Positions 37,121-42,372 of a stretch of 64,000 bases of DNA are shown here, one piece after another. Every line of letters starts with the position of its first letter. Positions within the stretch are counted from its first letter, which is position 1. Source of the stretch: Candidatus Latescibacterota bacterium (GTDB lineage Bacteria; Latescibacterota; UBA2968); contig OZ242010.1 of the NCBI GenBank assembly GCA_965204745.1, positions 800,001 to 864,000 on the forward strand. The letters are read 5' to 3'. The position numbers were made by a program, and so were the translations under genes. The notes beneath the pieces are model-generated. The model searched no databases, had not been told where the DNA came from, and saw only the letters and a program-made list of their open reading frames with translations.

Positions 37121-37869
37121 CGCATCCCCCGCAATAAATCATCGCTCGCCACGGTTGGACACCAGAACTTTTCGATAAACCCGATCACCAGTTGCGTGCC
37201 CGCTTCATGGCTCACATAAGGCGGCTTTGCCGGGTTGTACATCGCATCGGTCAAATCGCGGATCAGCGCGACCCGCACGCCCCAGCGCGTCATTTGCTTG
37301 ATGCCAAACGTGCGGTGCAACACGCACATATTGGTATGCACGCCCATGATGAGCATTTTGTCGATGCCCCGCTGTTGCATGTACCTGTAAATTTCGATGC
37401 CCTGATCGGAAATGACATCGCGCTCGTGGTCGATATCGATCCCGGCGTGTTGCCGCGTCCAAACCCGCGTGTCGATCTTGTTGGGGTCTTCTCCGGTGTC
37501 TGACCCGCCATCCGAATCGTCGATGGGCAACGGGGGATCCGCGCGTTCAAAATCCTCGGGCGGATCCACGGGCCGCACGTCCAAAACCCGTTTTCGCGCA
37601 GGCGTATCGGCATACGCATCGAGCGTGTTCGACGGCGCGTGAACGATGGTCGCGCCACGGTCGCGCACGCTTTTGACCACCGCGTTCATGCGGGGAATCA
37701 TCGCCTCCAATCGCTCGACCGCCCCTCGGCACCAATGGTTGTTCCACACATCGCACAACAACAGGGCCGTTTGCTCGCCCGGCCAGTTGACCCGCTCGCT
37801 GTTCATTTGCCAAACAGCGCGTTCGCTGTCATCCCACGACAAGGTCTGTTGCTGCATGGTCAAGTTCAC
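37117..37869 (-). CDS. Isochorismatase/cysteine hydrolase family protein
   Basis: AGGAGG RBS + GTG; TALLLCDVW, GVHTNMC, RDLTD. Confidence 0.8.
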   Translation of the reverse strand: MNLTMQQQTLSWDDSERAVWQMNSERVNWPGEQTALLLCDVWNNHWCRGAVERLEAMIPRMNAVVKSVRDRGATIVHAPSNTLDAYADTPARKRVLDVRPVDPPEDFERADPPLPIDDSDGGSDTGEDPNKIDTRVWTRQHAGIDIDHERDVISDQGIEIYRYMQQRGIDKMLIMGVHTNMCVLHRTFGIKQMTRWGVRVALIRDLTDAMYNPAKPPYVSHEAGTQLVIGFIEKFWCPTVASDDLLRGMR

Positions 37870-37910
37870 GATACACCTCCTATCAGGGGTCTGCGGTTGT
37901 GAAACCCAGC

Positions 37911-38705
37911 TCAATACCTCTCGTCGACCAACCACGCGCTTTCGGGATTCTTTTTCCAGTATTGGCGCAACACCTGTTCGTTTGGGCAAAATTCCCCGCG
38001 ATACGCAACGCCCCCGTGGGAGATATTGATGCTCATGGCGACCTCGTCCTCGCCTGCATCGACCCAGTGGGGCGTCAACAACTGGTTCCACAGCACGTCG
38101 CCAGGCCGCATATCGTAGGTCAAAATTTCTGCGGGATCGATTTCCGGAATCGCAATGCGCGTAATGCCCATGCGATCCGCCACGAGTTTTTCAACGGGTT
38201 CGCGGTTGCCCGGCTCTAAAAACCCGTGAAAGTGTTTTTCGCCATACACTTGGTACGCCAGCACATGCGAGGAATCCGCGTGATAGGTGGAGCGGCACCC
38301 TTTGCCAGAAAGAAAAATAATGGGATAACACCTTTGCCACGTCAACCCGAGTTGCGACAAAAATGCGCGCCAGGGAATCATCACGCAGTCTTGAAAATGC
38401 GCGAGAAATTGCCCCTCGGCATAAAAATTCTGCAAGTGAAAATGCGCCAAACTCACCGGCATCTCGACCGCTTCTTCGATGGGCGCGGCTTTGAATTTTT
38501 CGACCAGCCCGTTTTGCTCGGCATCGCTCAACCCGTCGTCCAAAAATTGAATGCGCGCCTCGGCATCGCGCCGCAAAATATCCACGACCTCCGCAACCGG
38601 AACCAGCGGCAGTTCAAATTGGAACAACTCGGCATCGAGCAAAAAATTGCGCTCGCCATTCCAAAGTCGGCGGAAATCATCCGCTGTCTTGGCGATGAGG
38701 TGCAT
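37911..38705 (-). CDS. Cupin/JmjC-like protein
   Basis: YHADSSH..QVYGEK..PGDVLW..PHWV. Confidence 0.7.
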   Translation of the reverse strand: MHLIAKTADDFRRLWNGERNFLLDAELFQFELPLVPVAEVVDILRRDAEARIQFLDDGLSDAEQNGLVEKFKAAPIEEAVEMPVSLAHFHLQNFYAEGQFLAHFQDCVMIPWRAFLSQLGLTWQRCYPIIFLSGKGCRSTYHADSSHVLAYQVYGEKHFHGFLEPGNREPVEKLVADRMGITRIAIPEIDPAEILTYDMRPGDVLWNQLLTPHWVDAGEDEVAMSINISHGGVAYRGEFCPNEQVLRQYWKKNPESAWLVDERY

Positions 38706-38774
38706 TGCACACTCCTTTGTTGTGAGTAAGAGGGGAGAGGCAAGAGGTAAGAGGTAAGATACTCTCTTAAAAGG

Positions 38775-39782
38775 TCAAGGGGTTTTCGGGGTGATTCGAT
38801 AGAATTTTTCGCCCTCAAAATCTTGGTCATGGCGCAACATGCCCCAGATCGAATGGAGCAACTTTCGCATCACCGCAACGATAGCCTGCAAAGGTTTCTT
38901 GCCGCGGGCGATGAGTTGGTCATAGAAGGCTTTGACATGGCCTTCGTGTCTGATGGCCACCCAGGCAGGCATATAGAGGGCATGGCGGAGGTACTTATTC
39001 CCGGTTTTCGAGATGCGTCTTTGTGGATTGGCGGTTCCGGATTGTTTGGGTTTGGGATCCAGGCCTGCATGTGCGACCCACTGGGGCGGTTGCATCTCCT
39101 CTGGCAAAAGGGTCAACTCGGCCAAGAGCCGCAAGGCACTCGTTTGCGCGATGCCAGGCGTCGAGCAGAGGCGTTGGTAGGCACGCTTGAGGGGCTCATC
39201 GTGCAAAACGAGATCGAGGGCTTGGCTTTCCAAGTATGCAATCCGGCGTTTGAAGTGTCGAATATTCACCTGAATATCGCGTGCGATGAGACGTGTGCTG
39301 CGGATGTGGTAGCTCTGCGCGTGGTTGCGGCTCTGTTCGCGGATGATCTCCTGCTTGAGTTGGTCAATGCGTCTGGTGAGGGCTTGCAGTTGAAGCCGTT
39401 GCTCGCTCGGCGCTTGCCAAGGCACAAAAGGCATGCGCTCGGCATAGTCGAGGATCAACAACGCATCCTTCGCATCCGTCTTCGCCCGTTGCATGCAGGC
39501 TTGGGCGTACTTGCTCATCGCTTTGGGATTGACGACCATGACCTTTGTGTGGCGATGCCGATGCAAGGCCAAGGCCACCCCCAAACTGTAAAGCCCGGTC
39601 GCTTCGAGGCACACAGAGACCATGTGCCCGCCCTTCGTGAGCCACTTCAGCAACCGCTTATGCGCTTGGGGATCATTGGCAAAGGTCGCTTGCATGACAG
39701 CTTGTCCGGGTCTGGACAGGGCAACGGACAACGTGCGGGCACTGACATCAATGCCGGCAAAAGCGGGGTGAGATTTCGACAT
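38775..39782 (-). CDS. IS110 DEDD recombinase/transposase
   Basis: GIDVS, CLEATG, KTDAKDA, PGI, GLDP..QSG, GNKYLR; AGGAGG RBS. Confidence 0.95.
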   Translation of the reverse strand: MSKSHPAFAGIDVSARTLSVALSRPGQAVMQATFANDPQAHKRLLKWLTKGGHMVSVCLEATGLYSLGVALALHRHRHTKVMVVNPKAMSKYAQACMQRAKTDAKDALLILDYAERMPFVPWQAPSEQRLQLQALTRRIDQLKQEIIREQSRNHAQSYHIRSTRLIARDIQVNIRHFKRRIAYLESQALDLVLHDEPLKRAYQRLCSTPGIAQTSALRLLAELTLLPEEMQPPQWVAHAGLDPKPKQSGTANPQRRISKTGNKYLRHALYMPAWVAIRHEGHVKAFYDQLIARGKKPLQAIVAVMRKLLHSIWGMLRHDQDFEGEKFYRITPKTP

Positions 39783-39839
39783 GGGGGCCTCCTGTGATGA
39801 GGGGGTTGTAAGGGATCTGGTGCGCGCTCGGGGTCGCGT

Positions 39840-40035
39840 CCCGACCATTGACGCCAAGTCTACCGGTCTTGTATATGCAGCCTCAAGGGGCTTAGATACT
39901 CTTCGGCATAGACCCGGCGGTCGGGGGGCCTATCTTACCTACAAGGTCATCGCCTTCAAGAGGGGCCGGCCTTCCCCGAGCCGGGCATCAAGATGGCTTA
40001 TCTCGATACGAGGGCGCAACTCCTAATTAACCCTT
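39840..40035 (-). ncRNA. Predicted IS110 bridge RNA (ends approximate)
   Basis: Four guides in IS621 order: LTG 39959-67, RTG 39934-40, LDG 39894-902, RDG 39868-74. Confidence 0.8.
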
Positions 40036-40276
40036 ACTTCCAAGATACAAGAGGGGAGAGGCAAGAGGCAAGAGGTGAAAGGCAAAAAGCGAAACGCAAA
40101 AGGGGAGAGGAGTGGCCCTCTCACGTCTTGCCTCTACCTTCTCACCTTTTTTGATTGTCCTTCTTCCGTCTTGCCTCTACCTTCTCACCTTTTTTGATTG
40201 TCCTTCTCCCGTCTTACCTCTGCCTTCTCACCTTTTTGGGATGTAGGGGCGATGCTTCGCCCTAAGATACAAGAGG

Positions 40277-40407
40277 CTATCTTGGGCATGACAGGTTCCC
40301 GGTGAGAAAGGGTGCGTTTTGGAGGTGACAAACAGGCCCAATTTACGAAGGGGCCCGTCTTTTTGCAACCCCCAAACAGCGAGCAATAGCATTTATGCAA
40401 CAACGCC
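40277..40407 (-). mobile_element. Remnant left end of the same IS5/IS903-group family
   Basis: TIR ATTTATGCAACAACGCC 40391-40407 and start MPKI; homologous to 11010-11142. Confidence 0.85.
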
Positions 40408-40636
40408 CCAAGTAGAAGTAAAATTTTGCATCCTGAATCAGATTCATCATACGCATTGCATTCGAGCACTTGGTCTTGTATCTTAGACCAACTGCTGTTG
40501 GTCTAAGATGATGCAATATGCCGAGCGCGAGCGATCCCCTTGACGTTCCGCAGTCATTCAAAAATGCCATCCCAAAAGACCGTCAGATAAAACCATCACG
40601 CACAGCGTGCAAGGCCGTTTTCCATTGGAGCATACC

Positions 40637-41074
40637 GTGATTCTGAACGCCAAGGACATACAAAAAATTCTTCCGCACCGCTATCCCTTTCTGCTGGTGG
40701 ATCGCGTGACCGAATTGATCCCCGGCGAGCGGTTGGTCGCGTACAAAAATGTGGCGGCGAATGAGCCGTTCTTCCAAGGGCATTTCCCCGGCAATCCGGT
40801 CATGCCGGGCGTGCTCATCGTCGAAGCCCTCGCGCAGGCCGCGGCGATTTTGATGAGCGATGGGCGAGAGAGCGATTTGGTTCCCCTGTTCATGGGCATC
40901 GACAAAGCGCGTTTCAGACAGCAGGTCGTGCCCGGCGATCAGCTACAACTCGAAGTTGAAGTCGGGCAAAGACGCCGCAATGTGTGCAAGGGCCGCGGCA
41001 AAGCCACAGTCGATGGCAAAGTCGCCGCAGAAGCCGAATTGATGGCCCTGTTCGCGCGGCGCGAAGATCTGTAA
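40637..41074 (+). CDS. fabZ: 3-hydroxyacyl-ACP dehydratase
   Basis: [33 protein letters not shown]. Confidence 0.96.
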
Positions 41075-41106
41075 CTGAAGTCTTTCCCTGATTTTAGGAG
41101 ATTAGA

Positions 41107-42372
41107 ATGCTCAACATAGAAAACAGGACATTGTTCACCTGTGACAATTTGGACATAATGCGGGGAATCAATAGCGAAACCATTGATTTGATCTATTTGG
41201 ATCCGCCGTTTAACTCGAATCGTAACTATGCGGCGCCCATTGGTTCGCAGGCTGCTGGTGCCGCCTTCAAAGATACCTGGTCGCTTGATGATATTAAGAA
41301 GGAATGGGCAGAAGAGCTCGAGGCGAGCGATAAGGCAATTTGGGCGGCTATAACGATGGCGGGATATATCGGTGGGGAAAGCATACAAGCCTATTTGACT
41401 TATATGGCTATTCGGTTGATTGAGATACGGCGGATACTAAAAAAAACGGGGAGTATTTGGTTGCATTGTGATCCTACGGCGAGCCATTATTTGAAGGTGT
41501 TGATGGATGCCGTATTTGGGGAAAGAAGTTTCAAAAATGAAATTGTATGGCATTATCGCAGATGGACAGCCGCCTCTAAACGCTTTCAGAGAATGCATGA
41601 TATCCTTTTTTATTATACAAAAAGTGACCGGTATGTATTCACAAACCCTTTGCAGGCTTATGCCGACAAAAAATACATTGAGGATACCGTGCGAGGTATA
41701 GTTGATGGAAAGACGGTACGCTTAAAAGACGAAAAAGGTAACTATATCAAACGAAAAACCCAGAAAGGTGGTGTTTTGATGCATGATGTGTGGGAGGATA
41801 TCAATTTTATTGCCCCCACATCCAAAGAGCGTACCGGATACCCCACTCAAAAGCCTCTCGCCCTTCTTGAGCGCATTATTGAAGCCTCATCTAATGAAGG
41901 CGACGTTGTCCTTGACCCCTTTTGTGGATGTGCAACCACCTGCATTGCTGCTGAAAAACTTGGACGCCAGTGGATAGGCATTGACATAGAGCCTAAAGCG
42001 CGTGATATCGTAATAGATCGATTAAAAAAAGAGGTTGATAATTGGGGTCTTATCAAGGCGGCTGGTGGGAATCGGGCCGAAGTGATACATCACAAAAACG
42101 CGCCTAAGCGTACAGAAGAAGATGCTCCACGCCGTTCTCGTAATATCAAAGAGATACTATATTGGAAACAAGGTGGGAAATGTGCCGCGCCCTGTGGAAA
42201 AGATGGCACGGGACGAGAGTTGGATATTGATCTTTTTGAGGTTGACCACATACGCCCCAAATCTAAAGGCGGTCCTGATATTGATGAAAACTTACAACTG
42301 CTGTGCCCAACGTGTAACAGGCGAAAAGGCAATAAGACAATGCAATACTTGTTAGATGTTTTGACCAGGTGA
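41107..42372 (+). CDS. Beta-class N4/N6 DNA methyltransferase fused to an HNH endonuclease
   Basis: DPPF before LDPFCGC; YPTQKP; EVDHIRPKSKGG..NLQLLCPTCN. Confidence 0.88.
   Translation: MLNIENRTLFTCDNLDIMRGINSETIDLIYLDPPFNSNRNYAAPIGSQAAGAAFKDTWSLDDIKKEWAEELEASDKAIWAAITMAGYIGGESIQAYLTYMAIRLIEIRRILKKTGSIWLHCDPTASHYLKVLMDAVFGERSFKNEIVWHYRRWTAASKRFQRMHDILFYYTKSDRYVFTNPLQAYADKKYIEDTVRGIVDGKTVRLKDEKGNYIKRKTQKGGVLMHDVWEDINFIAPTSKERTGYPTQKPLALLERIIEASSNEGDVVLDPFCGCATTCIAAEKLGRQWIGIDIEPKARDIVIDRLKKEVDNWGLIKAAGGNRAEVIHHKNAPKRTEEDAPRRSRNIKEILYWKQGGKCAAPCGKDGTGRELDIDLFEVDHIRPKSKGGPDIDENLQLLCPTCNRRKGNKTMQYLLDVLTR

Follow-up and report, generated by a model that had tools for sequence, protein, structure and literature searches.

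A putative bridge-RNA-guided IS110-family element aimed at heptamer array junctions in a Candidatus Latescibacterota genome

We analyzed a 64,000-nucleotide (nt) stretch of DNA (the window) from Candidatus Latescibacterota bacterium (GTDB lineage Bacteria; Latescibacterota; UBA2968; NCBI GenBank assembly GCA_965204745.1, contig OZ242010.1, positions 800,001 to 864,000), in which an earlier note, made from the sequence alone, had proposed an insertion sequence (IS) of the IS110 family programmed by a bridge RNA to a heptamer microsatellite. We consider it very likely (probability, about 0.9) that 38759-40049 of the window (minus strand) is an intact, recently active IS110 element of the IS621 type with a bridge RNA aimed at a junction between array units. 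This reading is built on the observed anatomy of the element, the census of its copies, the specificity of their flanks, and the covariation of guides and flanks.

Transcription, RNA-protein binding, circle formation, and strand exchange would proceed by analogy with IS621. The left end would specify a bridge RNA, about 190 nt long, in which two internal loops are formed. Loop 1 would carry guides for CTCCCCT-CT-T(A/G)CCT, i.e., the point at which a CTCCCCT unit meets a CTTACCT or CTTGCCT unit, and loop 2 would carry guides for the joined ends of the element, AGAGTAT-CT-TGTAT. Loaded with this RNA, the DEDD/Ser recombinase would pair the circular element with an array junction, and strand exchange at the CT core would give an insertion without target duplication beyond the shared core. 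Joining of the ends would also build a promoter, TTGACC-N18-TATCTT, from which both the recombinase and the bridge RNA would be expressed.

Element ends, junctions, and recombinase

The element proper (38759-40049; 1.29 kb; ends read from the junctions) is encoded on the minus strand, in which orientation all motifs are given here. The extent proposed earlier (38726-40110) contains the element, while its bounds take in the flanking arrays. At the left junction, the left target CTCCCCT (40058-40052) and the CT core (40051-40050), together spanning 40050-40058, are followed by TGTAT (40049-40045). At the right junction, AGAGTAT (38765-38759) precedes the CT core (38758-38757) and the right target TACCT (38756-38752), which together span 38752-38758. 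The right-hand array (38726-38758) reads CTTACCT CTTACCT CTTGCCT CTCCCCT and onward and was detected by Tandem Repeats Finder at 38726-38759 (period, 7; 4.9 copies); the left-hand array (40050-40103) appears in the rows 40048-40075, 40041-40085, and 40066-40103 of the same program. The junction reads and the period-7 arrays on both flanks agree with the donor (AGAGTAT-CT-TGTAT) and the target (CTCCCCT-CT-TACCT, within a heptamer array) that had been predicted.

The same core dinucleotide is found at both junctions with no other duplication across the 52 full-length copies of the genome. All 52 copies have the CT core after the right end, and 51 have it before the left end as well; the lone exception has a 1-nt insertion in the left-end tip. 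The left-flank consensus over these copies is ..TCTCCCCTCT. On the right, the base after the core is T in 48 of the 52 copies, followed by A in 32 copies and G in 18; this G would pair with the guide U as a wobble.

The left non-coding end (39783-40049; 267 nt) carries the predicted bridge RNA (roughly 39850-40035), and 16 nt lie between the stop codon and the right boundary, which is the long-left and short-right layout of the IS110 group. The right end (38759-38778) contains TTGACC (38778-38773), which overlaps the stop codon, and the left donor AGAGTAT (38765-38759). Between the two ends lies the recombinase gene (38775-39782; 335 amino acids), with an ATG at 39782 and AGGAGG just upstream, identified by Pfam and by structure-chain alignment.

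Both Pfam domains of the recombinase scored over the curated cut-offs, namely, DEDD_Tnp_IS110 (PF01548; N-terminal, DEDD RuvC-like; E = 1.2e-24) and Transposase_20 (PF02371; C-terminal; E = 4.8e-20). The best match in a search of solved structures was the ISCro4 transposase (PDB 9t56; E = 7.6e-40; residues 7-326 aligned), and the IS621 transposase was matched with E = 5.8e-36 (127.6 bits). In the alignment to IS621, residues D12, E60, D103, D106, and S248 stand opposite D11, E60, D102, D105, and S241, which are the catalytic residues named by Hiraizumi et al. (PMC11208158). All five are conserved and the frame is open, in agreement with the proposal of an intact recombinase.

Guide segments and predicted fold of the bridge RNA

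All four guides that had been proposed were located, in the proposed positions and order (left-end positions 85, 110, 148, and 176). The left target guide GGCCCCTCT (39967-39959; left-end 83-91, with the matching 7-mer from 85) includes the CT core, lies on the 5' side of internal loop 1, and matches the left target and core at seven of nine bases. On the 3' side of this loop, the right target guide AGGTAAG (39940-39934; left-end 110) is the exact complement of CTTACCT. The left donor guide AGAGTATCT (39902-39894; left-end 148), on the 5' side of internal loop 2, equals the right end and core at 9/9 bases, and the right donor guide ATACAAG (39874-39868; left-end 176), on the 3' side, is the exact complement of CTTGTAT (i.e., the core and the first 5 nt of the left end). 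Loop 1 would fit the target and loop 2 the donor, with the core contained in all four putative guides. When the left end was shuffled 100,000 times, the individual motifs had chance frequencies of 0.0004, 0.010, 0.012, and 0.021 (product, ~1e-9), and the four never occurred together.

The donor guides vary little. The left donor guide is constant in 19 of 20 aligned sequences, with a single change in the other. The right donor guide reads ATACAAG in all seven of these sequences that come from this genome and AGACAAG, with one mismatch to TGTAT, in the thirteen that come from the two related genomes. By analogy with the handshake-guide idea described in PMC11208158, the AU after the right target guide could play this role toward the AT at donor positions 6-7.

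The predicted fold of 39850-40035 (186 nt; -70.3 kcal/mol; z = -2.0) has a small hairpin and a 10-bp stem-loop, after which come two long stem-loops that are each interrupted by an internal loop. A left-end RNA with a 5' stem-loop and then a pair of stem-loops with internal loops, as modeled here, is the arrangement of the IS110 group. The guides had been expected to fall in the two internal loops, and they mainly do so in the minimum-energy fold; one of two exceptions is that GUAU in the left donor guide is paired to AUAC in the right one.

We also counted the structure on 20 distinct left ends from three genomes. Overall, 90.2% of cells were paired, compared with 30 to 46% when the 3' partners were slid by 1 to 3 columns, and the stems adjoining the loops were invariant. 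The loop-1 guides formed the most variable columns of the left-end alignment, while the loop-2 guides were nearly constant; the same contrast between a variable loop 1 and a constant loop 2 is described by Durrant et al. (PMC11208160).

Covariation of guides and flanks

Within this genome, one subfamily combines the guides GTCCCTCT/AGGTGAG with the flanks CTTCCCTCT/CTCACCT. Another carries GCGCCTCT or GTGCCTCT together with AAGTAAG and has left flanks reading CTCGCCTCT, CTCACCTCT, or CTTACCTCT and the right flank CTTACTT in four of five copies. A compensatory case is given by the guides CGCCTCT/AAGTAAG, which occur with the flanks CTCGCCTCT/CTTACTT.

Relatives of the IS are carried by two genomes of the same genus (25 loci). 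In one of them (18 loci), the IS lies in heptamer arrays at CTCGCCT-CT-CCCGT, with the guides CTCGCCTCT and GGGAG. In the other (7 loci), it lies outside arrays at ..CCCC-CT-TTTCT, with the guides ATCC(T/C)CCT and AGAAAAG (opposite CTTTTCT). In a more distant relative of the same order (G036), ACGTTAG lies opposite CTAACGT in all three copies.

We then compared own and foreign guides over 77 elements (flank pairs) and ten guide pairs from three genomes. The mean numbers of Watson-Crick matches of 5 were 4.52 for own guides and 2.97 for guides of other classes on the left side, and 4.09 and 2.71, respectively, on the right side. Both sides were perfect in 23 of the 77 own pairings and in 3 of the 693 foreign pairings. 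Guide variants that track their flanks in this manner are, at the level of sequence, the signature of bridge-RNA targeting.

In the G036 copies (L063-L065), the left target guide ends in AT and the right target guide complements CT, and the left junction is AT in two copies and CT in one. The target and donor cores of this relative may differ at the first base.

Heptamer arrays as the target

An array was defined as at least three consecutive units fitting CTYNCCT with at most one mismatch. The genome contains about 700 such arrays (660 after merging; 4125 units), and a shuffled megabase contained none. The cognate junction, CTCCCCT followed by CTT(A/G)CCT, accounts for 57 of 3423 neighboring-unit junctions (1.7 to 2.5% of junctions). 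Nevertheless, 29 of the 45 copies with the main guides lie in exactly this junction (binomial P about 1e-35), and 36 of the 45 do so when a 5-nt left target is considered. Another 70 sites reading CCCCTCTT(A/G)CCT are unoccupied. Array-like flanks of the predicted kind were found at 52/52 copies, as expected if other copies share the target.

These frequencies bear on a different account of target choice, in which a genuine IS110 has its target picked by the protein or by the DNA structure of the arrays and the complementarity of the left end to the flanks is incidental. We regard this as very unlikely, because guide and flank changes are concordant on both sides in at least five classes of this genome and in three other genomes with non-array targets, and because the strong preference for so rare a junction would be left over. 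The account does draw on the fact that all flanks belong to one array family, so that any CT-rich guide matches them in part (with wobble, foreign guides score 3.87/5 on the left); on the inverted partners of about 11% of arrays, which could form hairpins; and on a preprint reporting that ISPpu10 needs target structure besides sequence.

The arrays had been described as intergenic safe landing sites. Their intergenic position was borne out by a codon-usage log-odds model trained on 693 long frames, a crude test that called 45% of random places coding: a continuous coding frame ran across 6 of 572 arrays, compared with 260 of 572 random places of equal length. Their safety was not; the copy in the window lies 52 nt upstream of a start codon. 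Stop-to-stop frames were dropped as a coding test since CT-rich arrays lack stop codons. Neither the arrays nor the IS copies showed a pattern with respect to the replication strand.

Genome-wide, there are 1195 period-7 arrays of at least two sequence families, CTYNCCT and NACTGAC (904 four-unit matches), the latter spread differently among relatives. Other relatives in the genus have other short arrays, e.g., the 8-mer GAATAGAC in G008, which occupies the matching mosaic position beside a hairpin described below. We considered whether the IS had created the arrays. The 8-mer arrays in a like mosaic position in G008, which is free of the IS, and the distribution of NACTGAC lower this possibility, although the IS may have contributed to them.

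Copies in the genome and recent activity

A BLAST search of the single 5.48-Mb contig with the element gave 77 hits, 52 of them full length. Of the full-length copies, 31 are 100% identical to the window copy; another 6 exceed 99% identity, 8 show 96.1%, 2 are near 95%, and 5 are near 89%. All 57 matches to IS110 domains (Pfam) in the genome belong to copies or fragments of this element, most with open frames, and none of them represents a second IS110 family aimed at NACTGAC arrays. About 1.2% of the genome consists of this IS. Because the sequence outside the arrays is not the same among the copies, these represent independent insertions rather than duplicated segments. The many identical copies fit the copy-and-paste transposition that has been proposed for IS110 elements (10.64898/2026.08.31.748434; 10.1101/2025.10.25.684509).

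Contigs from public runs join 38727 to 40049 without the IS (runs X1 and X5, with >31 letters on both sides; run X3, with 23 letters on one side), from which it follows that the IS is absent at the window locus in those runs. This absence, the open frames, the intact catalytic residues, and the identity of 31 copies over 1289 nt in differing outer sequence argue against the idea of an element that is immobile now and whose copies are relics, multiplied by duplication or gene conversion. About 20 fragments and several broken copies are present, as that idea would have it, and the contigs examined contained no circle junction; we still give it a very small probability.

Several derivatives of the element were noted. 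At G000:C1:2972661-2972844, a miniature derivative without a recombinase gene has array sequence on its flanks and consists of left-end positions 1-183, which cover the predicted bridge RNA in full as far as the right donor guide, fused without a gap to the terminal bases of the right end. Four older fragments (88 to 91% identity; G000:C1:921772, 1263487, 1433018, and 2089466) have the left flank ..CATTCCCC-CT, which is a non-array repeat. This flank resembles the target used in the relative G016, which suggests that the lineage was retargeted to heptamer arrays later. Three right-end fragments (G000:C1:407530, 3450916, and 5323411) begin at IS position 1194, directly after a common palindrome-bearing sequence (consensus, ..TATAATTATAGCCCCCTACG), and this position may mark the insertion of a further small element into the IS. 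A tandem pair at G000:C1:1121595-1124180 consists of copies from different subfamilies (96% and 100%) with only CTTACCTCT between them.

Weighing of the interpretation

A number of observations weigh against an intact, recently active, bridge-RNA-guided element. Regarding the RNA, the left target guide (9 nt) begins with two bases, GG, that have no match in the flank, and its core end forms weak pairs with a portion of the right target guide in the minimum-energy fold. We attribute this self-pairing to the tandem-repeat target, which makes the left and right targets alike and the guides complementary to each other. Structural covariation is thin (of 43 pairs, only 2 show changes in both partners), only 74% of cells are paired in the 5' stem-loop, and an Rfam search of 38000-41000 gave no family match in the left end up to E = 1.

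With respect to the target sites, 9 of the 45 main-class copies lie in junctions with at least two mismatches, including four with CTTACCT on the left and two with CCCGT on the right. A 2026 preprint attributes many IS621 off-target insertions to half-matched sites and, by analogy, half-site insertion could cover the half-matched junctions here. In addition, the guides of the copy at 602782 fit its flanks poorly, while these flanks exactly fit the guides of the copy at 1297036. The left end of the copy at 602782 looks recombinant; either the copy was guided in trans by the RNA of another subfamily or its loop 1 was replaced later.

As to movement, the X3 and X5 alleles are not clean empty sites, as 37 other letters replace 32 nt of array (38728-38759), and the empty target is accordingly a reconstructed one and not one that was observed. 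No joint of right end to left end (i.e., circle junction) was found in X1, X3, X5, and X8 contigs over 37700-41100, in which the joints that go back are array sequence.

Candidate junction promoter

A candidate -10 box, TATCTT (40042-40047, minus strand), lies in the left end and would need the -35 box TTGACC from the right end after circularization. The earlier note had predicted that the circle joint would give TTGACC-N18-TATCTT, and the end sequences bear out this spacing: joining of the ends leaves 18 nt between the two hexamers for copies at 100% identity and 17 nt for those of the 96% subfamily. In relatives, the -35-like hexamer is kept at equal distance as TTGACC or TTGAAC. The putative junction promoter is a consensus match only, in a phylum whose promoters have not been characterized. 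A promoter scan of the integrated window copy returned no promoter-like site upstream of the left end. The arrangement fits the published IS621 model, in which excision rebuilds the promoter (Durrant et al., PMC11208160; Hiraizumi et al., PMC11208158). We rejected the flanking array as the supplier of a -35 box, as TTGnnn occurs at 18 nt in 5 of the 52 copies and at least four of six matches in 6 of the 52.

Solo copies of the left-end tip

The core and first 8 nt of the left end, CTTGTATCTT, occur 212 times in the genome (about 6 expected), corresponding to 56 real left ends and 156 solos. One of these solos, outside the IS copy of the window, lies at 40264-40273 (minus strand) and reads CT-TGTATCTT followed by a hairpin (AGGGCGAAGCATCGCCCCTAC). 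Most solos have heptamer arrays on one side and a hairpin repeat on the other. The hairpin GGGCGAGCACGGGGGCATCGCCCCTAC follows 103 of the 156 solos, and another conserved sequence follows 16, with an older-looking target before. The solos were rejected as two-ended miniature elements: for 148 of the 156, no right end (GAGTATCT) lies within 700 nt.

The tip together with the hairpin gave 107, 150, and 23 matches in three IS-bearing genomes of the genus and 0 to 2 in 38 other relatives searched. In an array-rich relative, CTTGTATCT occurs 306 times (reversed control, 12) and forms the constant link in an array-link-hairpin-tail-array mosaic. The hairpin itself is present in all 20 other species of the genus. 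Among IS-free genomes, seven have unrelated sequence before the hairpin (one copy each), and G008 has 8-mer arrays and a different linker before it in most of the 16 copies fetched. The joining of arrays to hairpins is thus a host feature, and the TGTATCT link is special to IS-bearing genomes. This link, made up of the first five bases of the left end and the core, separates heptamer arrays from the hairpin at >100 sites each in two of the IS-bearing genomes and at hundreds of sites in the third, and it was not seen ahead of the hairpin in the sampled relatives that are free of the IS. The three IS-bearing genomes are mutually closest on one compared protein (88% versus 76% identity), and given this close kinship, the association of the link with the IS may stem from a single ancestral event.

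It is conceivable, though unlikely, that the TGTATCT insert is a footprint or derivative of the bridge recombinase, e.g., from excision between the GTATCT end repeats. If so, the IS added heptamer units to host mosaic repeats, and its left junction (left target-CT-right donor) came to be imitated at hundreds of sites with which it can still recombine; an RNA-guided IS would then shape, besides using, a microsatellite. TGTATCT may be one of three things: a 7-nt excision footprint that was subsequently carried along by the mosaic repeat, an imitation of the IS left junction able to recombine with IS right junctions, or a coincidence.

We can all but dismiss a target-site duplication, in which the 7-nt direct repeat GTATCT(T) would result from insertion into arrays that already had a CTTGTAT unit: GTATCTT is present at both element ends, and the 156 solo sites, often beside arrays, resemble such empty sites, but identical ends in relatives with unrelated targets (G016 type and G036) and in the IS621 donor show that the ends belong to the element, the loop-2 guides match precisely these ends, and the cognate right target follows only about 2 to 4 of the 156 solos, compared with the 70 unoccupied cognate sites that lack a solo.

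Comparison with known systems and significance

Every defining feature of an IS621-type system that can be read from sequence appears to be present. The description of the element as having the IS621 layout holds for the CT core, the guide order, and the strand logic, which agree with the published scheme, including the presence of the core in all four pairings (Durrant et al. 2024, PMC11208160). The likeness to IS621 of Escherichia coli (PMC11208160; PMC11208158) extends to both Pfam domains, the catalytic residues, the long left and short right ends, and the CT core, as well as to guides that flank two internal loops in equal order and with equal strand logic. As in IS621, the 5' side of loop 1 reads as the left target and core and the 3' side complements the core and right target, loop 2 does likewise for the donor, and a candidate promoter would be split over the joined ends. 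The donor of IS621, ACAGTATCTTGTAT, and that of the present element, AGAGTATCTTGTAT, are one base apart; the former had been given in the earlier note and is printed within an oligonucleotide in PMC13396178.

The differences from IS621 lie in the distant protein match (127.6 bits; E = 5.8e-36), in a right target guide of 7 nt compared with the 4 bases counted for IS621 (PMC11208160), in the target (a heptamer-array junction here and a REP element for IS621), and in the 52 copies with several guide subfamilies in one genome. With ISCro4 (PDB 9t56), the best solved-structure match, the comparison covered the protein. ISPpu9 and ISPpu10 of Pseudomonas putida are similar in that an IS110 element lands in a high-copy intergenic host repeat; their targets are palindromic REP units, whereas the target here is a junction of tandem 7-nt units. 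Guide variants of one genome address different unit variants in the present element, unlike in ISPpu9 and ISPpu10. The IS1111 group, with its seekRNA elements, is part of the same superfamily and shares RNA-guided target choice. IS1111-group elements differ in having short left and long right ends, as opposed to the IS110-group layout found here (PMC11208160).

The mechanism and the programmability are already known for the family, and what distinguishes this element is its repeat target and the guide variants within one genome. We found no report in the literature of an IS110 element targeted to tandem repeats or microsatellites, although the supplementary tables of Durrant et al. could list one. 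The copies form a natural reprogramming series, with at least five loop-1 guide pairs in one genome and more in three related genomes, each fitting its own flanks. This series could guide the design of bridge RNAs with respect to 7-nt right target guides, tolerated wobble, and half-matched sites. A tandem-repeat target leads to left and right target guides that are partly self-complementary, which poses a structural problem for the enzyme. The IS is also inserted in promoter-proximal repeats of a largely unstudied phylum and may alter gene expression or drive rearrangements.

Genomic context and other observations

The copy in the window lies between a FabA/FabZ-like gene (start, 40607; plus strand) and an unassigned gene of 264 amino acids, the start codon of which (38705) is 52 nt past the right junction. 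A 43-nt tandem repeat (40119-40237; 2.8 copies; 93% matches) contains heptamers in inverted orientation and could form a long hairpin with the target array. The only Rfam hits in 38000-41000 were weak, miRNA-like, and located on the hairpin formed by the flanking arrays, and this inverted repeat explains them. Farther along on the plus strand, an open reading frame (41107-42372) fuses an N6/N4 DNA methylase domain to a C-terminal HNH nuclease domain.

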